Shown: positions 11,206 through 62,888, counted from the stretch's first letter. The stretch: DNA of 64,000 bases from Candidatus Roizmanbacteria bacterium RIFCSPHIGHO2_02_FULL_37_13b (GCA_001789395.1 MFZK01000003.1:48390-112389); one strand, 5' to 3'. Translations and numbers: made by a program. The notes: a model not told the origin generated them from the letters alone.

Positions 11206-12374
11206 TTTTTCTTGCTAAATCTTTGGACTATCTCATGTAATACCTTTATGACATATTTAATATCCTCTGTTTTGAATCCAGGTCCAAGCGGTAAGGAAAT
11301 AGTCCTGTCTCCAATAAATTCTGCCTTAGGATAATCTCCTTTTTTAAAGCCATATTTGCTCCTGTAGAACGAATGCATATGAGCAGGGATAAAATGAACA
11401 CCAGCTCCGACATTTCGTTTGATCATTTCATAAATAAATTGATCCCGGTTAACGGTCATTTGTTCTAAGTTGATAAGAATTGTATAAAGATGACGAGCAT
11501 GCACCATTGACTTATCAAGCATTGCAGGTAGAGTAATTTGATTTATTCTCTCCAACCCTTGTGAATACATATTCCATTGTTTAACTCGTGTTTTGAGATT
11601 TTGTTCTATTCTTTTTAACTGCATTATACCTATAGACGAGGCTATATCCGTCAGATTGTATTTATATCCGGGAAATAAACATTGATAGTGGGAAAAATGC
11701 TTGACAGAGTACCTTCTGTAGGCATCGCGCGATAAACCATGCAAACTTAGAATTCTCATTTTATCAGCCAACTTTTTATTATTTGTTGTTATCATTCCTC
11801 CTTCTGCGGTCGTTAGGTTCTTTGTGACATAAAATGAAAAAACTGTTATATCACCAATTGATCCTATTTTTTTATTTTTGTACCACGCTTCAATCGCATG
11901 TGCTGCATCCTCGATGACAGATAAATTATTTTTTTTTGCGATTGCCATTATTTTGTCCATATCACATGGCCGACCATATAGATGCACCGGCAAAATTACT
12001 TTTGTTTTTTTGGTAATTTTTTTTTCAATAAGTGATGGATCCATATTCCCGTCCGGCTTGACATCTACAAAAACGGGTTTGGCCCCACAATGCAATATCA
12101 CATTGACAGTCGCCGGAAAGGTTAGGGGAGAGGTGATAACTTCATCACCCGGTCTTACACCAACTGCATTAAGCGCAAGATGAAGTCCGGCAGTACATGA
12201 ATTAACCGCGAGTGCATATTTTGCGTGAGTATATTTAGCGAATTTATGTTCAAACTCTTCTGTTTTAGGACCTGTTCCTATCCAACCTGATTTCAGTGTT
12301 TTAACAACTGTTTTAATATCTTCCTGACGGATATCCGGCTGGCCAAATACGATGAATTTTCTCTTACGGGTCAT
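11202..12374 (-). CDS. DegT/DnrJ/EryC1/StrS family PLP-dependent sugar aminotransferase
   Basis: N-terminus [39 protein letters not shown] and the lysine region [14 protein letters not shown] are characteristic of this family. Confidence 0.8.
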
Positions 12375-12913
12375 TTTAATTTTTTTATTATTTTTGCCGG
12401 ACTCCCGGCGACTACTGATCTTGGGGGTACATCAACCGTCACAACTGAACCGGCACCGACAACAGATTCTTTTCCAATTTTAACTCCCGGCATAATAATC
12501 GAACCAACACCAATAAAACATCCATTGTCAAATACAGTGGTTTTAGTATTCTTTTTTATATATTTTTGCAATGGGTGCTCTTTGAATCCTACATTCGTAT
12601 GAGTTAGAATGAAACTTCGATTCGATAATGTTACATGATTACTTAAAATTACTTTACCGGCAAGATCTATCATAACTTCGTTGCCCAAAAAACAATTATC
12701 AGCTATCTTTAAACTAGAAAATCCGTTGTGGTAATAATTATAAAACTGGACATTATGCATAACGCAATTTTTACCTATATTTGCACCGAATAATCTCAAA
12801 ATGAACACTCTGAAAAATGGAAATAAACAATGATTAAATATTGCATTGATAATTGTTAAATAAACAAATCTCATCGCTTTTTGAAATCCTATTTCCTTTA
12901 ATGCTTTTATCAT
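12371..12913 (-). CDS. Left-handed beta-helix (hexapeptide) sugar O/N-acetyltransferase
   Basis: Hexapeptide repeats and C-terminal [33 protein letters not shown], WcaF/LacA-like. Confidence 0.7.
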
Positions 12914-13617
12914 CGATTCTTTAAAAATAGTGATATTAAATTGATTAAATATTCAGTTGAGTCTTTAATCGTATGCACCGTTGATTTTTTACTAAATTTT
13001 TTTTTATAGACAAGTGGAATTTCACAAACCGTCAAACCCATTTTAACTGCATAAAAGACAATTTCCGTATCCCAAAACCAACCCGGATTTTTTGCCTTTT
13101 TCAATACTGAAAGTATCTTACTTCGATGAAAAAACTTGAATCCTGATTCAGTATCTGAAACTGGCAAGTGGAACAATTTTTTGACAAATAATGCATATAC
13201 TTTTGTCGCAATATAACGATGAATTAATCTAAATGTAAACACATAGTCACGTTTACCGACAACAAAATCATTTTTTAATAGACAATGTAATGCAGGCTGT
13301 ATATATTCAGGGCTTATTTCCAAGTCGGCATCTATATATCCGGCTATCTCTCCCTGAGCTACGTCCAGTCCATCTGTCACTGATTTACCACGACCAAAAT
13401 TCTTACTATGTGTAATTAAAACCGTGGGGATATCTGGACGACTTTTTATGAGAGAGCGAATTATTGATATTGTATGATCTTTGCTTTTATCATCAACAAA
13501 AATTATTTCAAAAGGCCTATTTATTTTTTTTAAAAAAGTCAGAAGTGTTGTGTAGCTTGTTTTCAAATGTTCAGCTTCATTGAAGCACGCCAGAACAAGT
13601 GATAAGTATATCTTCAT
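12910..13617 (-). CDS. GT2 polyprenyl-phosphate sugar synthase-like glycosyltransferase (DPM1/ArnC type)
   Basis: [18 protein letters not shown]...[12 protein letters not shown]. The start was moved to the internal Met at 13617, because the longer ORF (to 13656) would overlap the divergent gene start. Confidence 0.65.
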
Positions 13618-17141: not shown

Positions 17142-18090
17142 GGTGAAGTTTTGATTTGTCTATATTTATTGAATCTTCAATAATATACATTGGTCTTCTT
17201 TTAGTTTCTTCAACAATAACCTGAATATATTTTCCTAAAATACTGATTGCCAAAAGAGTAATTCCACCAAAAAAAACAATCGCTAACATCAGAGGAATCG
17301 ACGCCTGGATCGGATTTCCAATCGCTATGACCCAGTATAGATAACCGACAATAAATATAAACGATAGAATAACCAAAATAAATCCGCTATAAATCATTAA
17401 ATCCAATGGCAAATATGAAAAACCAAACAAACCACGTTCCGCATGCTTTAAATAATCAAAAAAAGTATAACTGCTTTTACCATTGACGCGTTCTTGTCTT
17501 TTATATGGAATATATGCCCGTTTAAACCCAACCCAAGAAAGAAGTCCACGCCCAAAACGATTTTTTTCAGGCAGTGATATTAATGCATTCAATACTTTTC
17601 GATCAAATAAACCAAATCCTATTGTATTTGGAGGAAAATCAATGCTAGTCATCTTTCTTGAAACTCTGTAATATAATTTACGCATTAAGGCTATGAATAA
17701 TGATTTTTCTGATCTTTCATACGTACCTAAGACAATATCATATCCTTCTTCCCATTTTTTTATCAATTTTGTTATTACTTCAGGAGGATCCTGCATATCA
17801 GCTCCAAATCCGATTATAGCATCACCAGAAGCTTGATAAAGTGCTGCATGACCTGATGCTTCAGGTCCAAAGTTGCGTGATAAAAATATGCCTATAGCTC
17901 GTTTATCTTTCTTTGCAAGTTTAATAATTTCCTCTCGGGTATTGTCAGTGCTGCAATTATCAGCAAAAATGATCTCGAAATCGTAATTTTTGAAAGAATC
18001 AATAATTTTTTTTAGTTTATGATACATGAGAGAAATATTTTTTTCTTCATTAAGGCTTTGAATACATATTGAAATATTTTTTTGTCTCAT
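17134..18090 (-). CDS. GT2 polyprenyl-phosphate glycosyltransferase (ArnC/GtrB/DPM1-like) with C-terminal TM helices
   Basis: ISICIQSLNEEKNI...IIFADNCSTDNT DxD region; two C-terminal TM helices typical of ArnC/GtrB. Confidence 0.75.
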   Translation of the reverse strand: MRQKNISICIQSLNEEKNISLMYHKLKKIIDSFKNYDFEIIFADNCSTDNTREEIIKLAKKDKRAIGIFLSRNFGPEASGHAALYQASGDAIIGFGADMQDPPEVITKLIKKWEEGYDIVLGTYERSEKSLFIALMRKLYYRVSRKMTSIDFPPNTIGFGLFDRKVLNALISLPEKNRFGRGLLSWVGFKRAYIPYKRQERVNGKSSYTFFDYLKHAERGLFGFSYLPLDLMIYSGFILVILSFIFIVGYLYWVIAIGNPIQASIPLMLAIVFFGGITLLAISILGKYIQVIVEETKRRPMYIIEDSINIDKSKLHHG

Positions 18091-19031: not shown

Positions 19032-20146
19032 GATATCAACGGCTTAATCTTATCACAAATATAAGTTATTTCGGCTTTATTAAGTCCGATATAGAAAGGA
19101 AGAGCTAAGGTTTGACTTGAGATTTTTTCAGCAATTGGAAAATCATTCTTTTTAAACCCGTACATTTTTTTCATAAATGGTTGAAGATGTATCGTTGGAA
19201 TATATGGTTTTGTTTGTATCCCCATTTTACTTAATTTATTTATAATTTGATTTCTATTCCGGTTCAAAATTCTGATAACATATACAAACCATGAATGAGT
19301 TCTACCTATGCCAATTTTTGGAGTAATTATATTTGAAATAGACCGCAGTTTCATATCATAATATTCAGCAATTTTTCTTTTTTCTCTAATCATCCAATCT
19401 AGCTTCTTAAGTTGAGTCGTTCCTAATGCAGCGCTCATCTCATCCATACGATAGTTATAACCCAATCTCACATGATTTAGCCACTCTCGATTTTCACTCC
19501 GTCCTTGATTTCGTAAACTATTACAAAGTTGATAAATTCTTTTTGATTTTGTTACTAACATTCCACCTTCACCTGTAGTCATTTGTTTGTTCGGATAAAA
19601 AGCATAGACACCAACATCTCCAAACGAACCAGCCCATTTACCACGATATTTTGCTCCAAGACTTTCACAAGCATCTTCAATTATAGCCAAGTTATATTTA
19701 CGTGCGACAGCCATAATAGGATTCATATCCGCAGTTTGACCAAATATGTGAACCACAAGAATCGCCTTTGTTCGTTTTGTTATAGCTGATTCAATTTTAT
19801 GAGGATCGATGTTAAACGTGTCTTCTTCTATGTCGACAAACACTGGTTTAACATTCTCATATAGCAAACAATTACTTGATGCTATAAATGAAAAAGGAGA
19901 TGTTATAACCTCATCTCCTAATCCTAATCCTAACGCCTTAACTGCTAAATGTAACCCTGCCGTACCACTAGATACAGCCACTGCATATTTAACTTTTGCA
20001 TAATGTGTAACCAATTTTTCAAATTCGCTATACTTTGGACCCAATGATAATAAACCTGATTTTAGTACATCACTAACCGTCTTAATATCTCCGGAATCAA
20101 TATATGGTTTTGCTACTTGAATTATTTTCCTCACATTTTTTTTCAT
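19028..20146 (-). CDS. DegT-family aminotransferase (PseC/LegC-like nucleotide-sugar 4-aminotransferase)
   Basis: DegT motifs; PLP-lysine region AFYPNKQMTTGEGG; in an operon with the 4,6-dehydratase. Confidence 0.8.
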   Translation of the reverse strand: MKKNVRKIIQVAKPYIDSGDIKTVSDVLKSGLLSLGPKYSEFEKLVTHYAKVKYAVAVSSGTAGLHLAVKALGLGLGDEVITSPFSFIASSNCLLYENVKPVFVDIEEDTFNIDPHKIESAITKRTKAILVVHIFGQTADMNPIMAVARKYNLAIIEDACESLGAKYRGKWAGSFGDVGVYAFYPNKQMTTGEGGMLVTKSKRIYQLCNSLRNQGRSENREWLNHVRLGYNYRMDEMSAALGTTQLKKLDWMIREKRKIAEYYDMKLRSISNIITPKIGIGRTHSWFVYVIRILNRNRNQIINKLSKMGIQTKPYIPTIHLQPFMKKMYGFKKNDFPIAEKISSQTLALPFYIGLNKAEITYICDKIKPLIS

Positions 20147-20784
20147 TGATAAATATTTCGTATTTCTTTTTTGCTATGAAATATTTTTGCTGGATTTCCT
20201 CTTAAGGCTAGATTGTCTTGTAAATATGAGTGGGTAACAATTGATCCCATTGCCACAAATGTATTTTTTCCTAAATTAATATGATTTCTCAAACAACTGC
20301 CCAATCCTATAAAACTATTATCTCCAATTTTAACACCACCACCTGTCACTACTCGAGGTGCTAAATGTGAAAAACTCCCAATTGAATTATCATGTTCAAT
20401 AATACATCCCGTGTTTATATAAACACCATCATCAATTTTTGAATTTATGTTAATGATTGTATTAGCTCCGATAAAAACATTATTACCTAAAACCACATTT
20501 TCTTCAATAATTGAACATGGATGAATAATATTAATACAATTTATGTCCATTTTTTTTAATTTTAAATAAATTTTGCTCCTGACCAAATTATTGGCAATGG
20601 CTATAAAAACAGTAAAATTGCCGGCTTTATTAATCAAGAGTGGAATATCTGTAATTCTTCCCAAACAATCTGTTTTTTTTTCATCATCGATGAACCCCAG
20701 TAAATGATATTTTTTTGATTTCATTACCAGATACTTTACTATCTCTCCCTGATCACCATGTCCTATTATGACCAATTTTTTCAT
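20143..20784 (-). CDS. NeuD/PglD-family hexapeptide N-acetyltransferase
   Basis: MKKLVIIGHGDQGEIV N-terminal Rossmann-like segment plus a C-terminal LbH repeat, characteristic of NeuD/PglD/LegH. Confidence 0.75.
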   Translation of the reverse strand: MKKLVIIGHGDQGEIVKYLVMKSKKYHLLGFIDDEKKTDCLGRITDIPLLINKAGNFTVFIAIANNLVRSKIYLKLKKMDINCINIIHPCSIIEENVVLGNNVFIGANTIININSKIDDGVYINTGCIIEHDNSIGSFSHLAPRVVTGGGVKIGDNSFIGLGSCLRNHINLGKNTFVAMGSIVTHSYLQDNLALRGNPAKIFHSKKEIRNIYQ

Positions 20785-27525: not shown

Positions 27526-27535
27526 ATTATTCCAA

Positions 27536-27578
27536 TCAATCCCGGGATCGCAACAAAGCTAATTCTATCCCGGGATTA
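27536..27578. repeat. REP-like palindromic doublet (third copy of the repeat that flanks the RAYT gene)
   Basis: tcaatcccgggatcg-caacaaagctaat-tctatcccgggattac; ~90% identical to the doublets at 61222..61275 and 61955..62000. Confidence 0.6.
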
Positions 27579-28524
27579 CTAATTTATACCATTCATATAT
27601 TTTTTTAATTTGACTTGTCATAGTATATTGCGGCTGCCATCCACAAATTTTTTTGACTTTATTAAAATTCAGAGTCTGATAGGGAATTTCATTATTTGCG
27701 TTATTTATAATCTTGTATTTAATTTTTCTATTTAATTTGGTTTCAACAATTTTTATTACTTTAATGACTGAAAGGGTGTCTTTTGATCCGAAATTAAATG
27801 CTTGTCCCTTCGTCTTATCAATATTTTCCATCAGCTTAATATAACCCGATACAACATCTTTGATATAAATATAATCACGAACATGTTTTCCGTCACTACG
27901 TATTTTTAGTGTTTTATTTTGAATAATAGACCTTAAAATATCAGGAATGAGTCGAGAAAAATGGAAATCACCCTCACCGTATACATTACCAAAACGGGTC
28001 ACAGTCACGGGTAATCCATAAGTTTTATAATAACCTAAACTTATCATGTCAGCAGCGGTTTTAGATAATTCATACGGATGATCTGATAAAAGGGGATCTA
28101 TTTCCCGATACTTTCTCTTTCCTTGTTTTCCATAAGCTTTGTCTGATGAGGCGATCACAACACCTTTAATATTTTGTAAACTCCGGGTAGCTTCCAGAAC
28201 ATTCACCGTACCCTGAACGTTAGTTTCAAACATTATTCTCGGATTATCATATGCATTTTCTACTTCGGATACAGCAGCAAGGTGATATACAAAATCGGGT
28301 TTTATCTTTTTAATAAGACTTGATAATCTCTGAAAGTTTCGGATATCGCAACTCGCATATTTTACTTTTTTTAGTGTAGGACAATTGGCGAAGTATGATA
28401 GGGGATGGATTCTTATGTCACATGCAATAATCTTATAATCCTTTTTCAACAATTCTTCTGCTAAGTGCGATCCAATGAATCCCGTACCACCGGTGATAAG
28501 AATTTTATTATTTTTTATTTTCAT
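27565..28524 (-). CDS. NAD-dependent nucleotide-sugar epimerase/dehydratase (SDR)
   Basis: ILITGGTGFIGSHLAEELL, YELSK catalytic motif; the last codons (…VIPG) are supplied by the REP element. Confidence 0.7.
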   Translation of the reverse strand: MKIKNNKILITGGTGFIGSHLAEELLKKDYKIIACDIRIHPLSYFANCPTLKKVKYASCDIRNFQRLSSLIKKIKPDFVYHLAAVSEVENAYDNPRIMFETNVQGTVNVLEATRSLQNIKGVVIASSDKAYGKQGKRKYREIDPLLSDHPYELSKTAADMISLGYYKTYGLPVTVTRFGNVYGEGDFHFSRLIPDILRSIIQNKTLKIRSDGKHVRDYIYIKDVVSGYIKLMENIDKTKGQAFNFGSKDTLSVIKVIKIVETKLNRKIKYKIINNANNEIPYQTLNFNKVKKICGWQPQYTMTSQIKKIYEWYKLVIPG

Positions 28525-29452
28525 TCAATATTTTTCTTATAATATATCTTGGTCTTTTTTTTACTTCAAGAAAGATTTTGGCCAAATATTCGGCAATTAT
28601 ACTGATCGACAAAAGTTGTACGCCTCCTAAAAATAGAATGGCTAAAATTAATGTAGGTATCCCGCGTGGGGAGTTTTTGTACATAAAATATTGAACGACA
28701 TCTATCGTCAATAATGCAAATGAAAAAAACATTACAATAAAAGCAATCTTTGATATCCACTCAAGCGGTTTTAAAGAAAAATTAATTATTATGGTTTTCG
28801 CCCACCAAAAACCTGATAAAAGACTCTCTGTTGATGTTCCTCTCACTCTGCTATCTCTCACATATTCTATCCCTGTCTGACGAAATCCTACATATGCCCT
28901 AAGACACCTAATGTAATAATCATATTCATCAATTTTTGTTAATTCCGTTATTACTTTTTTATCCATCAGTGAAAATTCACCGGCGTTAAGCGGTATATCA
29001 ATATAAGCCATCTTTTTTAAAAGCGCATAAAAACTTTTATAAAAAAGATTCCATAAAATGCCGTATCCTTTTCGCGACTTTCTTACGCCGTAGACGACAT
29101 CATAACCATTTTTCCATTGTTTAATGAATTTTGGGATCAACTCAGGCGGATCCTGAATATCTCCATCCAAGAGTACAGAGGCATCACCATTTGAGTATCT
29201 CAGTCCGGCGATAAAACTGGATTGAGGCGTACCGAAATTACGACTCATAAAAATTATCTTAACCTTCTTGTCCTTTTTAGCCAATTTATTAAAAATTTCT
29301 TCCGAACCATCTTTTGAACAGTTATCAACATAAATGATTTCATAATCGTATGGAATTTTCTTAAAAACCGAAACTAGACGCTGATACATTTCATTAATAT
29401 TTTCTTTTTCGTTGAAACAGGCTATTATTATTGATATTGTTTTTTTTCTCAT
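28508..29452 (-). CDS. GT2 polyprenyl-phosphate sugar synthase-like glycosyltransferase with C-terminal TM helices
   Basis: ISIIIACFNEKENI...IIYVDNCSKDGS; two C-terminal TM segments. Confidence 0.7.
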   Translation of the reverse strand: MRKKTISIIIACFNEKENINEMYQRLVSVFKKIPYDYEIIYVDNCSKDGSEEIFNKLAKKDKKVKIIFMSRNFGTPQSSFIAGLRYSNGDASVLLDGDIQDPPELIPKFIKQWKNGYDVVYGVRKSRKGYGILWNLFYKSFYALLKKMAYIDIPLNAGEFSLMDKKVITELTKIDEYDYYIRCLRAYVGFRQTGIEYVRDSRVRGTSTESLLSGFWWAKTIIINFSLKPLEWISKIAFIVMFFSFALLTIDVVQYFMYKNSPRGIPTLILAILFLGGVQLLSISIIAEYLAKIFLEVKKRPRYIIRKILNENKK

Positions 29453-53696: not shown

Positions 53697-55208
53697 TTAT
53701 GATGCAATTCTTTGCAGTGCGTTTTTTAGCAATCGATAAAAGGTTGAAACTGATTCAATTTCAACTCTCTCTTCAGTTGAATGTGCACCATCTATAGTCG
53801 GGCCTATTGAGACAGGCGTCATATGAGCAAATTCTGACTGTTTTAAGAATTCTCCAAGCTCTAAACCTGCATGAATAGGACCTATTTTTGGTTTTTTACC
53901 TGTTAGACGTTCATATTCTTCTGCCATCAATGCCACCAGTTGATTATTTGGATCCGGAAGCCAACCTGTATAACTAGGTAATTGCTCAACATTTGCGCCA
54001 TATTTTTGACCAGCCGCTGCCACTCTAGCTCTTTGACTCTCTAACGTCTCAGCATAAGTACTCCTTGAGTTAACAACAAGCGATAATTTTCCCTCTTCTG
54101 TTTTGATAGTAGCTAAATTTGAAGAAGTTTCAACGAGATCAGGCACATTTTCAGTATAAGCCGCAACACCATGAGGTAACTCTTCAATTAAATCAACTAC
54201 TCTTGATGTATCTTGTTGTGTCATTACACGGCAATTTTCAATTGGCTCTAAATCTGTTGGAGATATCTCAATGTCGTTGTCCATTGGCGCATGAAGTCTT
54301 GCAGCGCTCTGAAATCCAGACACGAATGCATACACTCTATCGACTTCACTTGGATCAACCGCTAAAACCATTCTACAATCTGAAGGTATAAGATTATGAC
54401 GTTCACCACCTATAATTGATACCATATTAGCAGATACACCATAACTAGTTCTTAAATCTTTGAGTAACCGGCCTGCTTCTTTTATGGCATTTGCTCGCGG
54501 TTCATGGATCTTAAGACCCGAATGCCCACCGACCAAGCCAGAAATATCAATTTGTACTAATTTTCTGTCACCTAAGGCTTCGGTAGAAAACGAAGTTTCA
54601 ACTCGACTATTCCCTCCACCAGCACACCCATTGAATATTTGATTTCCATCTTCACTATCGACATTGATAATATACTGAGGCTTTGAAAAGTCAACGCCTG
54701 GAATGTTAAATTGCTGAACACCTGAGAGACCAGATTCTTCATCTACAGTTGCGATAAAGTATAAATCACCATGTCTTACTGTTTTATCGGTCAATATAGA
54801 CATTACAACTCCTAAACCCAAACGATTGTCCGCGCCAAGAGTAGTTCCATTAGCTTTAACCCACTTACCATCTTCAGACACAACTACATCAAGACCATTT
54901 GCCTCATCTATATCGCCCTTAAAAATCATGTCTTGGTGACCCTGTAAGATAACAGCGGGTGAGCTTTCACAACCGGCTGTTGCAGACGCATGAATGACTA
55001 CATTGCCAACACCACCATCGCCATCATCATAATAGTCAAAGTCAAACTCTTTAGCATAATCTCTTAATCTTGTGCGTATTGGGCCTTCTTGACCAGATTG
55101 GCAGGGGAATTTGCACAGATCTAGAAAGTACTTCCAGGTTTGGTTAACGCCTGGTTCGACTTCGCGCTCGACTAAACTATCTAGTTCTGCAGAAGTTGGA
55201 GGTGGCAT
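53697..55208 (-). CDS. pepD: M20C-family aminoacyl-histidine (Xaa-His) dipeptidase, PepD-like
   Basis: HQDMIF...GADNRLGLG...VDEESG... metal-binding motifs of M20 peptidases; ~500 aa typical of PepD; GC-richer than the neighbours. Confidence 0.7.
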   Translation of the reverse strand: MPPPTSAELDSLVEREVEPGVNQTWKYFLDLCKFPCQSGQEGPIRTRLRDYAKEFDFDYYDDGDGGVGNVVIHASATAGCESSPAVILQGHQDMIFKGDIDEANGLDVVVSEDGKWVKANGTTLGADNRLGLGVVMSILTDKTVRHGDLYFIATVDEESGLSGVQQFNIPGVDFSKPQYIINVDSEDGNQIFNGCAGGGNSRVETSFSTEALGDRKLVQIDISGLVGGHSGLKIHEPRANAIKEAGRLLKDLRTSYGVSANMVSIIGGERHNLIPSDCRMVLAVDPSEVDRVYAFVSGFQSAARLHAPMDNDIEISPTDLEPIENCRVMTQQDTSRVVDLIEELPHGVAAYTENVPDLVETSSNLATIKTEEGKLSLVVNSRSTYAETLESQRARVAAAGQKYGANVEQLPSYTGWLPDPNNQLVALMAEEYERLTGKKPKIGPIHAGLELGEFLKQSEFAHMTPVSIGPTIDGAHSTEERVEIESVSTFYRLLKNALQRIAS

Positions 55209-55278: not shown

Positions 55279-56172
55279 TTATTTTCGTTTATTGTGCAAG
55301 TAGACAACAAGTTCAGCGACTATACCAGTCATAATGATTTGAAGTCCAACGATGATTAGGAGAATGGCAAAAAGAAGTGCCGGACGCCGATACAAAAGGA
55401 CTCCATAAAAGATCCGCTGAAATGATAAATAACCAGCCGTGATAAACCCGACAGTAAAAAATAATCCACCAATAATTGAGAAAAAATGAAGGGGCCTCTC
55501 TGAAAAACGATAGATAAAGTATGTATTTAAGGCATCGATAAATCCGAAAAATATTCGAACAATATTATATTTTGATTCACCATGAATTCTTGACCGATGA
55601 TCTACTTCAATTTCACCTACTCTAAATCCTTTTTTTTCTGCAAGTATCGGGATAAAACGATAATTGTCTCCATAAAGAGGAATTTCCTCCAAAACCTGCC
55701 GTCGCATCATCTTAAATCCACAGTTAATATCATGTAATTCTGTCGAGAATAAAAATTTAGTTAGAAATTTATTTAAAATTTTTGAAGGTAAAGTTTTGTC
55801 AATTTTATCTTTCCTTTTTTTTCTCCAACCATTTATTAAATCATAACCTTGATTCATTTTTTTAATAAAGTTATTTAAGTCCTCAGGATTGTCCTGCAGA
55901 TCCGCATCCATAAAAGCGATAATATCTCCTTTAGTTTCTTTAAAACCAGCTGCAAGGGCCTGTCCCTTACCAAGCCGTTTAGGGTAAGATATAAGTTTAC
56001 TGTTTGTGTCTTTTGACGTGATACGTGTCACGTGGAACGGAGAACGATCAGTCGATCCGTCATCAACGAATATTATTTCAAATTGTTCTGATTCCAGAAC
56101 TTTCAATAATTCTTTATAAAGAATCGGTAAATTTTTTTCTTCGTTGTGAAAAGGTATTATTATTGAAATCAT
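55279..56172 (-). CDS. GT2 polyprenyl-phosphate sugar synthase-like glycosyltransferase with C-terminal TM helices
   Basis: MISIIIPFHNEEKNL...IIFVDDGSTDRS; two C-terminal TM helices; 4-nt overlap with the downstream membrane protein. Confidence 0.75.
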   Translation of the reverse strand: MISIIIPFHNEEKNLPILYKELLKVLESEQFEIIFVDDGSTDRSPFHVTRITSKDTNSKLISYPKRLGKGQALAAGFKETKGDIIAFMDADLQDNPEDLNNFIKKMNQGYDLINGWRKKRKDKIDKTLPSKILNKFLTKFLFSTELHDINCGFKMMRRQVLEEIPLYGDNYRFIPILAEKKGFRVGEIEVDHRSRIHGESKYNIVRIFFGFIDALNTYFIYRFSERPLHFFSIIGGLFFTVGFITAGYLSFQRIFYGVLLYRRPALLFAILLIIVGLQIIMTGIVAELVVYLHNKRK

Positions 56173-57569
56173 ATTTTCTTATATATTTCTAAATTCAGTC
56201 TACCGTAGACTAGTTTAAAATTTGGATCCTTTTTTAGTAAATTGTATGCATCGATTGAACCTTTTTTATCGTACCAATCATCTAAAACCTTATTCCTCAA
56301 TAATACCACATAATCGCCTTTTATGTAATTTGATGAAAATCGTATTAATGTTTTTCTTCTGGAAAAATGGGGAGCTAAGCTACCTGATGCTGCAACAGAA
56401 ATATTTTCATCCGATAAGATTCTAGTCCACAGCTCTATATCATTAGTTTCTGCTAATCGATTCTGAAAAGGCCGCATATCTGCCCATTTTGAATAGGGGA
56501 GAGGACTATATTTCCAACTAGTAAAAAAAGTCGCCATTAGTAAAATAATTAATAAATATTTAATCGCCATCTTCTTCTTCTCTTGAATAAATTGCAAACT
56601 ATATATTAATGATAAAAAAAGAATCGGGGTGATCACCGCGGTGTAATGATAAATTACACTTTGCATGTTGGTGTTACTGCTTAGTAAGTTTATAACTAAG
56701 TCTGGCAGTGCTAGAAGAATAACCGGTGAAAAAATTGGTAACAATGATAATGGTGAAAGTATTAACCAAAAATAATCCAAACTATTTGTACTAAATAATT
56801 TTTGAATAATAATCATAATAGAACTTAAAGAAGCTCCTATGTATTTATAGCGAACTAGAGCAAAATGTTGTCCTTGACGAAAATATGGAATCAACCAAAA
56901 GAAGACCGCAAGTAACCAGAAAATGCTTAATCCAAAAACAGCAAAATTAAATCGTCGATCGCCTCTTTTTGACAAAATAAAATAAATTGCCATTAATGTT
57001 ATTGTGACCGCAACTTGCTCTTTGGAAAAAATAGTGAGTAGAAAGAAAATCGCTGAAAATAAGTATTTTTCCTTCTTCCAAAAGTAAAATAGTGCCAATA
57101 AAAACGTTGTCGACAAAGTTACGGCATGAAAATCAAAAATCACTGACCACTGTAGTGGAGGATACATCAAATATAAAAACGCCAAAAGCAGTCCTATTTT
57201 ATTTGATCCAAGAATTTCTTTTGTCAATAAATAAACAAAGATACTACCCAAAGCAACAATTAAAACCTGCAAGATTATAAGCGTCTCAGGTCCTGAATAA
57301 ATCCAATACAAAGGTGCTAATAAAGCTAAAATTACATCACCATGAATCACCAATCGATTAATCGATTGGAATCCTGCCGGATCGGTCATTTGTAAAATCC
57401 GACCCTTGCTTGTATTATAAACTGTTTGATCCATTATCCCCATGTCATAATATTCTGAAAGAAAAGCTTGGTGACGTGATATTCCATAGAAAGAAAAATA
57501 AAGAATAAAAACCAAAACCATTAACGATAAAATAATAATTTCCTTTTTATTTATTATTTTTTTTATCAT
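56169..57569 (-). CDS. Polytopic membrane protein (DUF2079-like putative GT-C glycosyltransferase partner)
   Basis: 466 aa, ~12 TM helices; operonic with the GT2 above; contains the palindrome ccaatcgattaatcgattgg at 57350..57369. Confidence 0.5.
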   Translation of the reverse strand: MIKKIINKKEIIILSLMVLVFILYFSFYGISRHQAFLSEYYDMGIMDQTVYNTSKGRILQMTDPAGFQSINRLVIHGDVILALLAPLYWIYSGPETLIILQVLIVALGSIFVYLLTKEILGSNKIGLLLAFLYLMYPPLQWSVIFDFHAVTLSTTFLLALFYFWKKEKYLFSAIFFLLTIFSKEQVAVTITLMAIYFILSKRGDRRFNFAVFGLSIFWLLAVFFWLIPYFRQGQHFALVRYKYIGASLSSIMIIIQKLFSTNSLDYFWLILSPLSLLPIFSPVILLALPDLVINLLSSNTNMQSVIYHYTAVITPILFLSLIYSLQFIQEKKKMAIKYLLIILLMATFFTSWKYSPLPYSKWADMRPFQNRLAETNDIELWTRILSDENISVAASGSLAPHFSRRKTLIRFSSNYIKGDYVVLLRNKVLDDWYDKKGSIDAYNLLKKDPNFKLVYGRLNLEIYKKI

Positions 57570-57605
57570 TATTTCTTGGGTTTTTTTACCTTACCAAATC
57601 ACATT

Positions 57606-58550
57606 TTATACCTTATTCCCAGAATGATACTTTTTGTGTGTTTCTCTTAATCTTAAATTGGTAACATGAGTATATATTTGCGTGGTAGAAATATTTTTGT
57701 GGCCTAACATTTCCTGAACCGACCTCAAATCCGCCCCATGATTTAATAAATCGGTGGCAAATGAATGTCTAAGCACGTGTGGAGTCAAATGATTTAGAAT
57801 ACCGGCTTTTTTTTTGTATTTGTCGACCATACGCTCTATTGACCGTGTTGTTAACCGCAGGCTTTGATCAGTTAATTCTCCTTTGATTTTCGGACCGCTG
57901 TAACGAATAAAAAGAGCTTGATATGGATCCTTGCGTGCGTGCAAATATTCATTTAACCATTTCTTCGCTGAAGTCGTCAAAAAAACAAGTCTGAGTTTGC
58001 GCCCTTTGCCCATGACCGCAAATTCACCTTCATTAATATTGACTTTATCTCTATTAAGACTTACAAGTTCAGATACTCGAAGGCCAGTTGAAAAAAGAAC
58101 TTCTAAAATTGCCTTATCACGAAGTCCTCGGATTTTTTTTGTATCCGGTGCTTGAAGTAATTTAGTTAACATATTTTCTTCCAAAAATTTTACTTCCCGA
58201 TCACCCAGTTTTCCAAGTTCAATTATCTCGGGAGAAATCACGGACAATTTTTTCTTTATTAAATACCTAAAAAATGAACGAAGTGCGACTAAAAAATAAT
58301 TCTGTGTCTGTTTTTTTAACTCACCTTTATATTGATTAAAATAATCTCTCGATAAATAGAGACGAAATCTTCGGATCTGCTCTTCATCAACATTTTCTAC
58401 CTTGAAGTCTGTCCCTTTTTTTTCCTCTTTTTCAATCCATTTCTGAAAAAAAGTTAAATAATAGTCATACATTCGGATCGTATTCTGGGATAAATTCCTA
58501 TCAAGATCACAATATTCCAAAAAACGTAAAATAGCTTCGTGCAGATTCAT
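57606..58550 (-). CDS. Tyrosine site-specific recombinase (XerC/XerD family)
   Basis: Box I/II residues: ...GLRVSELVSLNRD..., HVLRHSFATDLLNHGADLRSVQEMLGHKNISTTQIYTHV (R..HxxR..Y catalytic set). Confidence 0.8.
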   Translation of the reverse strand: MNLHEAILRFLEYCDLDRNLSQNTIRMYDYYLTFFQKWIEKEEKKGTDFKVENVDEEQIRRFRLYLSRDYFNQYKGELKKQTQNYFLVALRSFFRYLIKKKLSVISPEIIELGKLGDREVKFLEENMLTKLLQAPDTKKIRGLRDKAILEVLFSTGLRVSELVSLNRDKVNINEGEFAVMGKGRKLRLVFLTTSAKKWLNEYLHARKDPYQALFIRYSGPKIKGELTDQSLRLTTRSIERMVDKYKKKAGILNHLTPHVLRHSFATDLLNHGADLRSVQEMLGHKNISTTQIYTHVTNLRLRETHKKYHSGNKV

Positions 58551-58570
58551 AACTTAATTGTAACAAAAAA

Positions 58571-58604
58571 CCCAGCCCAGCCGCTCGCGAGCAGCTGGGC
58601 TGGG
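58571..58604 (-). terminator. Strong GC-rich hairpin terminator (bidirectional-looking)
   Basis: cccagcccagc-cgctcgcgagca-gctgggctggg, an 11-bp perfect stem; on the minus strand it is followed by a T-run (tttttt); lies between the Cys-rich gene and xer. Confidence 0.6.
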
Positions 58605-58640
58605 TAATTTTAGTAATTAAATATTTACTTTTTTAGCTGA

Positions 58641-59801
58641 CTAGTTCCTACAACAATAATTAGAATTATTAATATTTTGACAAGATCCCTCACATACTTG
58701 CGCACAACTGGAATTTGGATCACAACTGCAGCTTTCCGTACAACTAGCCGGAATGCTTTGTTCTAAAACAGGACATTTCATATAGTCATTACACAGTTGT
58801 TTTGCGTATTGCGTCCACAATGATCGCGGTTTACAAGATGTTGATTCACCCAGTGTATATTTTTTAAGAATTGATTGACCGTCTGAACAGTAAAAATTCA
58901 CATGTCGATATCTCTGGGTATCCAAGCATGTCTTATCATTACTGTTGCATTTTGTCGGACCGCCACAAAGATCGCTGACGGAAACACCTTTTTCAGCGAC
59001 TAATCCGCAAACAGATGGTATTTTTTCTGCTCGCATTTGAACGGCGGTAATCGCTGGTTCTATTACAACTATTGGTGATATTGCTGGAAACAACCTCTGC
59101 GTTATGAGAATATCACGTCCTATGGGCGTAGTCTTATCAAAACAAGGATATTGTTTTTGGCACCAATCATCAGCTGATTTCTTAAATCCTGCCCAAGGCA
59201 TACATGATCCATCAGATTTTAGAGGAACATTGATCACCTCGACTTTGCCTACTTCATATTTTTTGTTATAACAGAGGAATTCATAACTAGTATAGCATTG
59301 TGAACCGATTGATTTGACCAACCGATAAGTACCGTCAATTAATCCTACTTTACAGGTCGTATCAGGGATTGGTTTGGCTACTTCCTCTTGTTTTTTGCCA
59401 CCTATTGATTCCCAATTAGTACAACAAGCGTACCATGGACTTTCTTTCGCAGACAATTTGCCCATAAACCATTCCTGCGACTGACAAACACTTGTCCCCG
59501 ACTGCAGTGATTGTGGAGTAAAATAGGCTGTAGCTTGTGTTTTACCACTTCTTGTAGGACAAGTAGCATTATATAACCTTATCCCGCGGCCTTCACCAAA
59601 GTGGCAACTGTTTACTCCGGACATAGATACCCGGCAGGTACCAGGATCAGCAGCAGAGGAAAAGAAAGTCAACGCTTGATCGGTATTCTTGGTCATCACG
59701 ACCACCGCTAATGTCAAAACTACTAATAAACCAACAACAGCAAAAATTGCTAATTTTGCCCGATGTTGCCTGCGAAAAAGTTTGTCAATTTGATGTTCCA
59801 T
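58641..59801 (-). CDS. Cysteine-rich extracytoplasmic protein with N-terminal signal anchor (paralog 1)
   Basis: 386 aa, ~36 Cys including several CC pairs; TM near the N-terminus; shares a conserved N-terminal ~120-aa domain (GTCR.S.SGVNSC.FGEGRG.R.YN...SVCQS...CC.NW) with 59813..61141; ~40% GC. Confidence 0.55.
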   Translation of the reverse strand: MEHQIDKLFRRQHRAKLAIFAVVGLLVVLTLAVVVMTKNTDQALTFFSSAADPGTCRVSMSGVNSCHFGEGRGIRLYNATCPTRSGKTQATAYFTPQSLQSGTSVCQSQEWFMGKLSAKESPWYACCTNWESIGGKKQEEVAKPIPDTTCKVGLIDGTYRLVKSIGSQCYTSYEFLCYNKKYEVGKVEVINVPLKSDGSCMPWAGFKKSADDWCQKQYPCFDKTTPIGRDILITQRLFPAISPIVVIEPAITAVQMRAEKIPSVCGLVAEKGVSVSDLCGGPTKCNSNDKTCLDTQRYRHVNFYCSDGQSILKKYTLGESTSCKPRSLWTQYAKQLCNDYMKCPVLEQSIPASCTESCSCDPNSSCAQVCEGSCQNINNSNYCCRN

Positions 59802-59812
59802 ATATTTTGTAA

Positions 59813-61141
59813 TTAATAACTATTATTGACGACACAATATGAATTAACACACTGATAGGCAGTTGGACAAGGCCAGAAACCACAGCTAATTGAACTCGAA
59901 CCGCCAGTCGTTCCATAACCACTTGATCCAGATCCGCCGGGACAACAATACCATCGACCTGAATGCTTTGCACAACTTTTTCCTGATTCACATTCAACCG
60001 TTAGACAATTTGATGCCTCCCCAGCGCGACAAGGACAATAGCTATTTCTCTCTGTTGTACAACCCGTAGGAATACCAGGTTGTGAGGAGGTTGGAGTAGG
60101 ATTTTGGTAATCAGGAATTACACAACAATATTTCTGTGTTCCTCCTCGCTCAGAATCAAGACGACAAATCTGTTGGGCAGGTGTCTGACCATCAGGACCT
60201 TGACGATATGTATTACAAGTTGTACTACTAGTACATCTGATATCAGTACATAAAGAATCTTTTTGACAAGTACTACATGCCTCATTGGTTTCACAACCTA
60301 TTCTTCTACAAACATTGGCATAAAGAATTGGATAAGACGATCCTCGATAATAACATCGATATCCAGTTAAACAATCTGAATCAACAGAGCACGTTTCATT
60401 ACAGCTTCTTTTAATCGTGGTTGGAGATGGTACTAAAGGCCAGTTTGTAATTTGCCTTTCCCCCTGACCGCTACCTCTCTGACCACAGCATTGATTATTA
60501 GCCAATAATATTAACTCATCTTGAGAAAGACAAATTTCGCTAGTAACAGTCTCTGATTTAATAGAGCTTCCTTTCTTACATTTATATGACAAGGCATTAG
60601 CTTTTGGCCTGCGACATGTGCCTTTCGTAAACTGATTAACTGTATATTGTATTTTGCATGAAACAGTTGGGGGAGGATTTCCAGTGGGTGAAGAATTGGT
60701 TGGTCTGGGTTGTCCCGGTGGTTGATTTCCAATTAAATCATCCCAATTGTTACAACAATTTTTCCAATTACTTCGCTCATCCCTGAGTTTCTTTACAAAC
60801 TCACTCTTTGATTGGCAAACCGAAGATCCGGGAGCTAAATCTCTTGGGAGAAAATATAATGATGGAGGATTTCCCCTATAATTACATCCTATGCCGGAGG
60901 AAGACATATTATATATACGAAATCCCCGTCCTTCACCAAACATACAACTATTGACTCCGGATAGAGATCCACGACATGTACCTTGTACTTCCGCCGATGC
61001 AAACATATTCCTTAACTGATCACTATTTGCAGCTAAATTTACGACCAAAATGCTGACGAAGAGAGCAAAAACACCAACACTAAGCAATGCTAACTGAGTA
61101 CGTTTATGATACCGAAATAATTTTTGAATTTTTAAATCCAT
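59813..61141 (-). CDS. Cysteine-rich extracytoplasmic protein with N-terminal signal anchor (paralog 2)
   Basis: 442 aa, >40 Cys, Pro/Thr/Ser linkers, Gly/Ser-rich segment; N-terminal domain homologous to the adjacent paralog. Confidence 0.55.
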   Translation of the reverse strand: MDLKIQKLFRYHKRTQLALLSVGVFALFVSILVVNLAANSDQLRNMFASAEVQGTCRGSLSGVNSCMFGEGRGFRIYNMSSSGIGCNYRGNPPSLYFLPRDLAPGSSVCQSKSEFVKKLRDERSNWKNCCNNWDDLIGNQPPGQPRPTNSSPTGNPPPTVSCKIQYTVNQFTKGTCRRPKANALSYKCKKGSSIKSETVTSEICLSQDELILLANNQCCGQRGSGQGERQITNWPLVPSPTTIKRSCNETCSVDSDCLTGYRCYYRGSSYPILYANVCRRIGCETNEACSTCQKDSLCTDIRCTSSTTCNTYRQGPDGQTPAQQICRLDSERGGTQKYCCVIPDYQNPTPTSSQPGIPTGCTTERNSYCPCRAGEASNCLTVECESGKSCAKHSGRWYCCPGGSGSSGYGTTGGSSSISCGFWPCPTAYQCVNSYCVVNNSY

Positions 61142-61221
61142 ATACTGCTAAAAAACTTATATATATTCAGTGTTACAAATTGCTGGACTGTTTGTCAAGA
61201 GGCAATCAACCGTTCTGGAAT

Positions 61222-61275
61222 TTAATTCAATCCCGGGATTGCATCAAGGCTCATTCAATCCCGGGATTGAATTAA
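61222..61275. repeat. REP-like palindromic doublet flanking the 3' end of the RAYT gene
   Basis: ttaattcaatcccgggattg-catcaaggctcatt-caatcccgggattgaattaa. Each unit, caatcccgggattg, is itself a perfect palindrome. Confidence 0.7.
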
Positions 61276-61937
61276 GTAATAATTTTTGATTTGATTAATT
61301 GTAATTTTTTTTGATAATCAGCCTGATCGTATATAAATTTATGATATGCATCGGGTGATTTAAAATACGCCAATATTTCTCTTTTAGAGATGACATTGTC
61401 ATCTTGCGTTGTCCGAGAAAGAAAATATGGTAACGACGTGTAAGGATATCCAACAAGGTCTTCAATTTTTATTATCCCTGAACTAACAGGATTTAAATGG
61501 ATGTATCGTGAAGTATGAATCAATTGTTCTTCACTTGTAATCAATACTGCTTGATAGCGCGTCATAAATACAGGTCCCTTTTTTGAATATTTTTTATTGA
61601 GGTACTTCGCATATCCTAATTGTATATTTGAAACAGCTGACCTAATACCATCGGTAATGTTTTGCTTCAATAGTAAGTGAAAATGATTTGGCATTAAACA
61701 ATAAGCAATAATTGTTACGATTCTATCCTTTGTTTTACTTAAATAATTTTTTTGAGCATCTTTATTAAGATTTATAAACTTTGAAAAGCTCATAATTTGC
61801 TGAAAGCGATAATATTTGAATAGAGAACAAAACCTATTAAGGTCGTCAATATTAAAATATAACCGTTTTGATTCCTCACATCTGTTATAAATATGATAAA
61901 AATAGTTATTTACAAAAAATTGTTTCCGATAGGGCAT
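61272..61937 (-). CDS. IS200/IS605-like HUH Y1 transposase (REP-associated tyrosine transposase, RAYT-like)
   Basis: HUH motif YCLMPNHFHLLL and catalytic Tyr motif RYIHLNPV; flanked on both sides by REP doublets. Confidence 0.75.
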   Translation of the reverse strand: MPYRKQFFVNNYFYHIYNRCEESKRLYFNIDDLNRFCSLFKYYRFQQIMSFSKFINLNKDAQKNYLSKTKDRIVTIIAYCLMPNHFHLLLKQNITDGIRSAVSNIQLGYAKYLNKKYSKKGPVFMTRYQAVLITSEEQLIHTSRYIHLNPVSSGIIKIEDLVGYPYTSLPYFLSRTTQDDNVISKREILAYFKSPDAYHKFIYDQADYQKKLQLIKSKIIT

Positions 61938-61954
61938 ATTAATATTTTTATCAA

Positions 61955-62000
61955 ATCAATCCCGGGATTGCAACATGGCTAATTCAATCCCGGGATTGAT
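61955..62000. repeat. REP-like palindromic doublet flanking the 5' end of the RAYT gene
   Basis: atcaatcccgggattg-caacatggctaat-tcaatcccgggattgat; same orientation as the other two copies. Confidence 0.7.
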
Positions 62001-62023
62001 GAGATGTTATAATTTATAATCAG

Positions 62024-62108
62024 GAAGGGTCGCATAGCGGCCGAGTGCGCACGCTTGGAAAGCGTGTAAGGGTAAAACCTTCGCGGGTTCGAATCCCGCC
62101 CCTTCCGC
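62024..62108 (+). tRNA. tRNA-Ser (anticodon GGA), type II with long variable arm
   Basis: Acceptor GGAAGGG/CCCTTCC, 3-bp D stem GCA/TGC, anticodon arm CACGC-TTGGAAA-GCGTG, 16-nt variable arm, T arm GCGGG-TTCGAAT-CCCGC, discriminator G. Confidence 0.8.
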
Positions 62109-62243
62109 ATTGACATTTCTTAGCGAACCTGAGATTATCGAAAGAGAGTTTAGAAATGACAAGGCCCGCCAAATTAACGCCCCTTGAGTCGCAGTAGAAA
62201 TCTACTAAGACGAAAGGTAAGTAATGGCGGGCTATATATATAC

Positions 62244-62888
62244 ATGGATAAAATTACCAACAGTAAGACGGTAGCTGCTGCCTTAGATTGGGGAGAAGTG
62301 ATCCTTGCTCTAGTCAGAAATCATCCTGTCATTGCGCCACTTATCCTTATCGCTATTGAAGAATTTGCCATTCCTCTTCCACTTCCAGGCGAAGTCTTGA
62401 TCGTTTATACCGGCTATCAAGCTTCACGAGGTATCTCCAATTATACCTTTGCGTTTATATCGTTCTTTTTTGCTGTTTTAATTGGTGCGTCAATATTATA
62501 TTGTCTATCGGTAAAATGGGGTAATTTTCTGGTCCTTCGGCTTGGCAAATTATTTCATTTAGATCAAAAAAAATTACATCTTATCGAAGAGAGATTTCGA
62601 CGTCATGGAATGTTATTTATCATACTAGGTCGTATGATTCCGGGATTTCGAATCCCTATAACCATATTTGCCGGTATGTCAAAAGTCCCATACAAGACTT
62701 TTATCTACGCGATATCATTATCAAATATTATTTGGATTCCATTATATCTTTATATAGGAAAAGTCTTTGGCCCGCAGAGTCATAGAATTCTTCAATCCCG
62801 CTACTCAATTTTGTTTATTATTTCAATACCGGTTTTAGTCGCAATCATCTATTATTTCTTTTATAAATCCATTGACACCAAAAATTAA
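62244..62888 (+). CDS. DedA/TVP38-family membrane protein
   Basis: Start at MDKITNSK; DedA motif region ...EEFAIPLPLPGEVLIVYTG...; 4-5 TM helices. The longer ORF from 62184 would run through a leader hairpin. Confidence 0.7.
   Translation: MDKITNSKTVAAALDWGEVILALVRNHPVIAPLILIAIEEFAIPLPLPGEVLIVYTGYQASRGISNYTFAFISFFFAVLIGASILYCLSVKWGNFLVLRLGKLFHLDQKKLHLIEERFRRHGMLFIILGRMIPGFRIPITIFAGMSKVPYKTFIYAISLSNIIWIPLYLYIGKVFGPQSHRILQSRYSILFIISIPVLVAIIYYFFYKSIDTKN

Follow-up and report, generated by a model that had tools for sequence, protein, structure and literature searches.

What two adjacent genes for cysteine-rich proteins, here called cys1 and cys2, contribute to a small bacterium, and whether they reached it as cargo of a mobile island, are the questions raised by a locus in a 64,000-nucleotide (nt) stretch of DNA, hereafter the window, from Candidatus Roizmanbacteria bacterium RIFCSPHIGHO2_02_FULL_37, a metagenome-assembled genome (MAG) of the Candidate Phyla Radiation (CPR; Microgenomates) that was recovered from groundwater of the Rifle aquifer. 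Life in attachment to other cells is the presumed habit of CPR bacteria, and to our knowledge the molecules that mediate this contact are almost unknown. A preliminary description made from the DNA alone had gathered a tyrosine recombinase (xer), the two cysteine-rich paralogs, an HUH-Y1 transposase with repetitive extragenic palindromic (REP) doublets, and a tRNA-Ser gene into one accessory islet, and had suggested that the paralogs are adhesin- or toxin-like. The positions that it assigned to these genes were all borne out by open reading frame (ORF) and tRNA calls; the islet was not.

The picture that we favor, though by no wide measure of confidence, is that cys1 and cys2 encode disulfide-stabilized, fast-evolving, membrane-anchored modular surface proteins that probably serve in attachment or recognition, and we hold the description of these proteins as exported, disulfide-rich, modular, and fast-evolving with more confidence than the word adhesin. 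Their history is best explained by vertical inheritance, together with the transposase gene and its REPs, since before the split of the two species that appear to carry them. Coordinates of all features are collected in Table 1.

Architecture of the cysteine-rich proteins

Cysteine makes up 7.3% of the cys1 product (28 residues) and 8.6% of the cys2 product (38 residues), whereas it accounts for 0.97% in the remaining 59 window ORFs. The earlier figure of ~36-45 cysteines per protein did not survive this count; the CC motifs listed with it were all recovered, two of them in cys1 and four in cys2. By hydropathy, each protein has a sole strongly hydrophobic stretch of 20-21 residues, preceded by a positively charged segment (net charge +4 over residues 1-16 of cys2, +3 for the cys1 segment), and the first 45 residues are Cys-free, so that every cysteine lies beyond the hydrophobic stretch. 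A positively charged N-terminus followed by one transmembrane (TM) helix agrees with the earlier reading of both proteins as signal-anchored, and the positive-inside rule predicts a type II topology (N-in, C-out) that would place the Cys-rich part outside the membrane.

The N-terminal parts of the two proteins are paralogous, with 39% identity over 166 amino acids (aa; E 2e-34), which confirms the shared N-terminal domain seen before. Within this region both have a domain of ~90 aa with six invariant cysteines, the C-terminal end of which reads W-x2-CC-x-NW. Beyond it, cys2 has modules with 6, 8, 6, 8, and 4 cysteines in turn, so that with the modules delimited by hand on the translation every module holds an even number and the tally is 6+6+8+6+8+4=38. 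The modules are separated by the linkers QPPGQPRPTNSSPTGNPPPT, NPTPTSSQPGIPTG, and GGSGSSGYGTTGGSSS, and the Pro/Thr linkers and Gly/Ser-rich region of the preliminary description are present in this protein. An internal repeat consisting of a 4-Cys beta-hairpin and a helix was also seen by eye (cys1 residues 169-220 and 292-343, with similar segments in cys2 and in its ortholog P0003) and stays unproven: hidden Markov models (HMMs) built from either cys1 copy did not detect the other copy above shuffled decoys, and low-confidence AlphaFold2 secondary structure is alike at both places.

Evolution of the two proteins

Both proteins have orthologs in one sister species (contigs L001 and L003), and the comparison separates a strictly kept cysteine scaffold from changeable surroundings. 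Between cys1 and its ortholog P0005 (449 aa), 28 of 28 cysteines are kept, against 68% of the other aligned residues, and an extra stretch of ~63 aa in P0005 holds its 10 additional cysteines. The cys2 orthologs have 38 cysteines each, yet differ by whole modules: an 8-Cys module with its linker (cys2 residues 361-400) occurs only in the window's protein and an insert of ~130 aa only in that of the sister species. At 61% (cys1) and 52% (cys2) identity between the two species, against 75-77% for the flanking VTT, Xer, GT2, and EamA proteins, the cys genes appear to diverge faster than these flanks, a comparison made at the protein level, since an amino-acid identity of 52-62% implies saturation of synonymous sites.

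Module number also varies within the population. Alleles of cys2 coding for 442 aa were found in 12 contigs and two NCBI accessions (90% cluster), and alleles coding for 499 aa in one JGI sequence (on an 89,950-bp contig) and three sequences from run SRR3989344 (90% cluster). The longer alleles carry an exact tandem duplication of the 57-aa 8-Cys module at residues 236-292, and a fragment, P0133, contains the start of a third copy, which gives alleles with 1, 2, and at least 3 copies. The earlier suggestion of a diversifying pair therefore stands, with modules gained, lost, and duplicated between species and strains.

Three contigs from independent samples that are otherwise 100% identical to the window end within the 57-aa module (L010 at position 60366, L011 and L012 at 60295), which fits either population heterogeneity or an assembly ambiguity induced by the repeat; ends at such places suggest that assemblers stall on the repeat. 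One cys2 variant, P0002, a single member sequence, carries the changes G23C, in the TM helix, and G282C, which creates an extra CC, and these may be sequencing errors rather than a real allele.

Relatives of the family

A word-indexed search returned near-identical sequences and one diverged ortholog per gene, P0003 (532 aa) and P0005. An exhaustive search of 1.84 billion cluster representatives with an HMM of the N-terminal domain recovered 3 proteins, all from the same two lineages, and searches of JGI metagenomes, GTDB genomes, and IMG/VR together added one further contig of the sister species; the GTDB scan did not return the window's own genome, which is evidently missing from that collection. 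The exact cys2 sequence is deposited at NCBI as OGK21916.1. With the whole proteins there was no match in Pfam, NCBIfam, PHROG, or PADLOC, and sequence and profile searches against PDB found nothing, in keeping with the earlier remark that no family could be named. The family thus appears, from these searches, to be an orphan known from the window species and one sister species only, and its distribution and divergence suggest that it is young and fast-evolving.

The nearest likeness among named domains is to knottin, WAP, Squash inhibitor, and EGF-like domains: the modules are 20-60 aa long with 4-8 cysteines, contain CC doublets and motifs such as C-x-x-DSDC-x-x-G-Y-x-C, and stand in series on flexible linkers. 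Eight modules searched singly against Pfam (E<=10) gave chance-level matches to Squash inhibitor, WAP, CBM_1, and carboxypeptidase inhibitor families (E 0.05-6), all below the curated cutoffs (best 13.8-14.1 bits, E 0.05-0.06, against 20.6-22), and the likeness is further weakened by the lack of a PDB match and by structure models that are too poor for comparison.

Origin of the locus

The arrangement that had looked like an islet is shared with the sister species, in which the order is that of the window throughout: ABC-ATPase, VTT, tRNA-Ser(GGA), transposase, cys2, cys1, xer, DUF2079, GT2, EamA, TGT, tRNA-Gly. As the core proteins of the two species are only ~75% identical, the arrangement must predate the split between them. 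In three more distant relatives (L004, L005, and L006) the block xer-DUF2079-GT2-EamA(-TGT) is intact and the cys genes are absent. In L004 and L005 tRNA-Ser(GGA) lies ~0.9 kb upstream of xer, and homologs of the transposase and cys genes are missing from this spacer, which in L005 holds two unrelated small ORFs instead; in L006 a helicase gene lies upstream of xer. The tRNA-Ser(GGA) and xer genes are thus the conserved walls of a variable spacer rather than parts of an island, and the ~3.9-kb filling, consisting of the transposase gene with its REPs, cys2, and cys1, is specific to the clade of the two species. The word accessory holds in the sense that the filling is lineage-specific, being variably present among related genomes (carried by the window and sister species, missing from this spacer in L004 and L005 and altogether from L006), and fails in the sense of an islet with its own integrase. 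At the L005 spacer, tRNA-Ser genes stand in tandem (6856-6942 and 6970-7058), and ARAGORN reads the anticodon of one as the unusual ACT, beside GGA; either a mis-call or an odd tRNA may account for this.

The recombinase belongs to the chromosome. It has both Xer domains (PF00589, E 6.5e-45; PF02899, E 1.1e-11) and the complete catalytic set (R158, K183, H258-x2-R261, H284, and Y293), and it matches the NCBIfam models of XerD and XerC over their full length with 252.8 and 244.4 bits, both below the respective equivalog cutoffs (329.6 and 335.15), for which reason the scores do not decide between XerC and XerD. It has more than 6000 homologs at E<=1e-60, and the best 120 are 65-75% identical, those with names being Roizmanbacteria. 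An integrase that travels with cargo was not what we found: xer keeps to DUF2079-GT2-EamA-TGT in the relatives that lack the cargo. Its place in the core block, the full-length XerC/D match, and the catalytic set therefore identify it as a chromosomal Xer and not an island integrase, which settles a point that the preliminary description had left for checking and removes the recombinase as an island boundary. It resembles the XerC/XerD dimer resolvases in its full-length match (~250 bits), its R-K-HxxR-H-Y set, and its synteny across Roizmanbacteria, and it differs from them in scoring under both equivalog cutoffs.

The transposase matches Pfam Y1_Tnp (PF01797) with 35.4 bits (cutoff 23) and NCBIfam REP_Tyr_transpos with 52.5 bits (below the cutoff of 80), and it has the motifs HFH at residue 85 and YIHLNP at residue 145. 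On both sides of its gene stands a REP doublet composed of the perfect palindrome CAATCCCGGGATTG twice, a sequence with 6 matches in the window where 0.22 are expected. The HUH-Y1 assignment with REP doublets, made earlier, is therefore sound, and the gene is here called a REP-associated tyrosine transposase (RAYT). A third, degenerate doublet (CAATCCCGGGATCG, 14 nt, CTATCCCGGGATTA) lies between genes at 27534-27580, and its distance of 34 kb from the RAYT gene indicates that the REP pair dispersed as a unit. The RAYT of the sister species stands at the same site and is 47% identical, well below its neighbors at ~75%, and the palindrome that flanks it is different, TGCAAACCCCAGGTGTT, at 3040-3056 and 3778-3794 of L003 and 4851-4867 and 5589-5605 of L001; gene and palindrome apparently diverged together at this site. 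RAYT/REPIN systems, reportedly described by Bertels and Rainey in 2011, share with this locus the HUH-Y1 protein with HFH and YIHLNP, palindromic REP doublets on both sides of the gene, and a dispersed doublet, as well as the same chromosomal site in a sister species with a different REP sequence there. The window's gene departs from them in its score under the NCBIfam equivalog cutoff and in its CPR host. By these features it is probably an ordinary domesticated RAYT, and RAYTs are domesticated, single-copy, and vertically inherited genes (Bertels et al. 2017, PMC5581495).

Base composition was the remaining sign of an island. The guanine-plus-cytosine (GC) content of cys1 and cys2 is 40.5% and 39.7%, so that the ~40% reported before was right for the genes, while the background is 33.8% rather than ~30%, and several other genes of the window are equally high. 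It is codon position 2 that holds the excess (z +2.9 and +4.5), as would be expected of proteins with much Cys, Gly, Ser, Thr, and Pro; GC at the third position (GC3) is 0.31 and 0.23, against 0.278 +/- 0.036 in the other ORFs (z +0.9 and -1.3). With GC3 ordinary and the excess confined to codon position 2, nothing in the composition points to a foreign origin.

It is accordingly quite improbable, in our judgment, that the segment is a recently acquired islet formed by a mobile element that integrated beside tRNA-Ser via the tyrosine recombinase, the HUH transposase, or both. The absence of RAYT, cys2, and cys1 from the L004 and L005 spacers, the tRNA, recombinase, and transposase genes standing side by side, and the whole-gene GC above that of the window are what such an event would leave. 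They are outweighed by an Xer that stays in the core block with or without the cys genes, by normal GC3, by a gene order old enough to be shared with the sister species, and by the vertical inheritance of RAYTs. We also found no tRNA-derived direct repeat of the att type in 57400-62300, tRNA-Ser borders the segment with its 5' end and not its 3' end, and no relative was present in phage, plasmid, and IMG/VR viral collections. The preliminary description had itself named conserved synteny and uniform GC as grounds for abandoning horizontal acquisition, and the order in the sister species and the GC3 values largely amount to these. The island-like look of the locus is explained by flanks that are conserved, a RAYT that is domesticated, and the amino-acid composition of the proteins, and the negative result is useful as a record of how a tRNA, a recombinase, a transposase, and a higher GC content can mimic one.

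Transcription unit

On the minus strand the genes are read in the order transposase, cys2, cys1, recombinase, DUF2079, and GT2. The gap between cys2 and cys1 is 11 nt. Upstream of cys2, a stretch of ~60 nt is ~85% identical in the sister species, next to a REP region that cannot be aligned, and this conservation suggests that the stretch acts as a promoter; a consensus promoter scan listed no site within it. The strong GC hairpin that had been ascribed to the recombinase gene exists, with a 16-bp stem and 11 G-C pairs, and is located downstream of cys1 and upstream of xer, so that it is the terminator of cys1 rather than of the recombinase. It is kept in the sister species with one compensatory change from A-T to C-G and one G-U wobble. 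The short gap, the conserved upstream stretch, and the conserved terminator together suggest that cys2 and cys1 form one autonomous bicistronic transcription unit with its own promoter-like region.

Proposed role and alternatives

Under the reading that we favor, both proteins would enter the membrane through Sec as type II proteins with a signal anchor, and the cysteines of their ectodomains would be oxidized outside the membrane by an MdbA/DsbA-like plus VKOR system. An MdbA-like oxidoreductase, often encoded beside VKOR, is enriched in CPR (bioRxiv 10.1101/335083). Each ectodomain would be a chain of small, rigid, independently folding disulfide-knotted modules on flexible, possibly glycosylated linkers, with the family-specific 6-Cys domain near the membrane and the variable 4-, 6-, or 8-Cys modules distal to it. 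Such chains would be displayed on the surface of a small, probably host-dependent Roizmanbacterium, where they would make contact with other cells or surfaces, and would have evolved by paralog duplication, by insertion and deletion of modules between species, and by tandem copy-number change within populations. The strict Cys scaffold, the rapid change elsewhere, and the variation in module copy number argue for surface proteins that meet changing partners.

Several points weigh against this reading. The Pfam and NCBIfam scans turned up no binding domain of the adhesin, lectin, or any other type, no sortase or lipoprotein signal was found in either protein, and among the 10 small ORFs of the window that were scanned none is a Dsb or VKOR gene. 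Function, localization, and disulfides are predicted from the translations. The window's one-copy cys2 allele could be an assembly collapse of the 171-bp tandem repeat, and cleavage and release of the ectodomains at AxA-like motifs beyond the helix are possible. Both proteins are far smaller than the Cys-rich proteins of Peribacteria that serve as an analogy (mean 1655 aa). Structure prediction with AlphaFold2 from 5-sequence alignments gave unreliable models, with a mean predicted local distance difference test score (pLDDT) of 33 for cys2 and 41 for cys1, in which only the last ~37 residues of cys1 (350-386) reach ~71-78, and a Foldseek search of PDB with the better model returned no match at E<=0.001, the matches being noise. 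The family is an example of an orphan for which both sequence and structure prediction fail.

Three other roles were considered. That the proteins are secreted effectors or polyproteins, with a cleaved signal peptide and an ectodomain or knottin-like modules that act, once released, as toxins, antimicrobial peptides, or protease inhibitors on hosts or competitors, we regard as improbable. The motifs SSA|A in cys1 and ASA|E in cys2, 12-13 residues past the helix, are of the AxA type, the modules between linkers resemble multi-domain inhibitor arrays, and the weak inhibitor-like similarities reported above point the same way; against this, those matches are at chance level, a hydrophobic stretch of the length seen here with a cleavage site so far beyond it is atypical for Sec signal peptides, no gene for a processing protease, immunity, or export is adjacent, and the most conserved domain is the membrane-proximal one, as would be expected of the base of an anchored stalk. 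A metal or redox function, such as metallothionein-like sequestration, Fe-S or Zn scaffolds, or extracellular thiol buffering, would suit the very high Cys content, the absolute conservation of the cysteines, and an origin in groundwater, where reducing conditions occur, and L005 has metal-resistance genes upstream of the same spacer. We give it little credence, as every cysteine falls on the predicted outer side of the membrane, the cysteines of each cys2 module as delimited are even in number, metal motifs rich in CxxC or containing His are lacking, the Pfam and NCBIfam scans gave no match to a metal-binding family, and linkers of Pro, Thr, Gly, and Ser with variable module copy number are typical of surface stalk proteins.

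Equally doubtful is an envelope scaffold, S-layer-like or wall-associated and possibly O-glycosylated by the products of the adjacent GT2 and DUF2079 genes, that binds nothing specific. The DUF2079 protein has weak similarity to PMT_2 (E 1.6e-4) and its gene overlaps GT2 by 4 bp, the window is rich in genes for glycan synthesis, and Ser/Thr/Pro linkers are the usual O-glycosylation targets of PMT-type systems. A functional link between the cys genes and DUF2079/GT2 is weakened, however, because the xer-DUF2079-GT2 block is conserved in relatives without the cys genes, which makes the adjacency unspecific; the cys unit moreover has its own terminator, and a family of two species with variable modules is unlikely as an essential scaffold.

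A bolder form of the surface-protein reading, which we put forward as a speculation with perhaps some chance of being right, is that the pair is a newborn, lineage-restricted family with an unseen disulfide-rich fold and the determinant by which the clade recognizes its host or partner, tuned within natural populations by copy-number change of the variable-number-tandem-repeat type and by swapping of 4-8-Cys mini-domains. If true, it would offer a compact and tractable model for the evolution of surface recognition in ultra-small symbiotic CPR bacteria. As a delimited two-gene unit in two sampled species, with module number varying among co-occurring strains, the pair is in any event a concrete candidate for fast-evolving surface recognition.

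Comparison with known systems

The closest parallel in kind is found in Candidatus Peribacter riflensis, one of the CPR genomes in which strain-variable Cys-rich extracellular proteins were described, with attachment as their suggested role (Anantharaman et al. 2016, PMC4736985). The Peribacteria proteins share with the window's pair a CPR host from the same Rifle aquifer system, a Cys content of ~7-9%, a signal or anchor, predicted extracellular location, mostly missing annotation, neighboring genes, and strain-level variation. They differ in size and number (a 14-gene cluster, against a pair of 386-442 aa) and in that some contain integrin FG-GAP or Myxococcus Cys-rich repeats, whereas the window's pair has a private N-terminal domain; the two sets were compared by description, not by homology. 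The cys pair is a new, unclassified example of this known CPR feature.

As a matter of general knowledge, repeat-variable adhesins of Gram-positive bacteria and the variant surface proteins (VSPs) of Giardia are also anchored proteins with whole-domain copy-number polymorphism among close strains and a distal part that diverges rapidly, in organisms with a dependent lifestyle. The window's pair differs from these in an anchor that is an N-terminal TM helix, not an LPXTG-sortase signal or C-terminal TM helix, and in that binding is predicted only; unlike the Giardia VSPs, it has no CXXC-rich signature, and signs of switching or of a repertoire of many genes are lacking, there being two genes.

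Gene map and neighboring genes

Table 1. Features of the locus in window coordinates, with amino-acid identity to the sister species where compared
Feature	Coordinates	Strand	Identity	Basis
GT2 glycosyltransferase gene, downstream of DUF2079	55279-56172	-	75%	
DUF2079 gene, downstream of xer	56169-57569	-	63%	
xer, tyrosine recombinase, XerC/D-type, 314 aa	57606-58550	-	75%	ORF; Pfam/NCBIfam; synteny; catalytic residues; conserved flank
Intrinsic terminator that ends the cys2-cys1 unit; 16-bp stem with 11 G-C pairs, and a T-run	58570-58605	-		Hairpin scan; sister-species conservation
cys1, 386 aa, 28 Cys (7.3%), NCBI hypothetical A3C23_01040	58641-59801	-	61%	ORF; Cys count
cys1 N-terminal ectodomain, ~residues 46-132, 6 Cys	59406-59666	-		Paralog comparison; profile search
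cys1 signal-anchor (residues 17-36)	59694-59753	-		Hydropathy; charge
cys2, membrane-anchored modular (predicted), 442 aa, 38 Cys (8.6%), NCBI hypothetical A3C23_01045	59813-61141	-	52% (N-terminal part)	ORF; Cys count
cys2 57-aa 8-Cys module, residues 236-292, copy-number variable	60266-60436	-		Allele comparison
cys2 family-defining N-terminal ectodomain, ~residues 46-135, 6 Cys	60737-61006	-		Paralog comparison; profile search
cys2 signal-anchor (residues 17-37)	61031-61093	-		Hydropathy; charge
Promoter-like stretch upstream of cys2, TTGACA at 61193-61198	61154-61211	-		Sister-species conservation; function inferred
REP doublet between RAYT stop codon and cys2 promoter region	61224-61270			Palindrome search
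RAYT-like HUH-Y1 transposase, 221 aa	61272-61937	-	47%	Pfam Y1_Tnp; HFH and YIHLNP motifs
REP doublet between RAYT start codon and tRNA-Ser	61953-61999			Palindrome search
tRNA-Ser(GGA)	62023-62108	+		tRNA call; conserved flank
VTT gene			76%	
EamA gene			77%	
TGT gene			63%	

The block of xer, DUF2079, GT2, EamA, and TGT is found Roizmanbacteria-wide. The overlapping DUF2079 and GT2 genes (55279-57569 in the window, ~9000-11400 in L004-L006), the first with weak PMT_2 or GT-C-like similarity and the second with C-terminal TM helices, may encode a pair of polyprenol-phosphate-sugar synthase and GT-C transferase for envelope or protein glycosylation. An M20/PepD-like peptidase gene of 503 aa (53697-55208, minus strand; GC 40.7%, GC1 0.56) stands between GT2 and EamA in the window species only; EamA follows GT2 directly in L004-L006 as well as in the sister species, and the peptidase gene looks like a real single-gene insertion in this neighborhood.

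Genes for glycan and envelope biosynthesis are abundant at ~1-33000 of the window. They include matches to GT2 paralogs at 12997-13605, 17323-18075, and 28550-29437, PglD-like and hexapeptide acetyltransferases at 20143-20784 and 12371-12913, and S-adenosylmethionine-dependent methyltransferases at 1765-2682 and 8747-9451.

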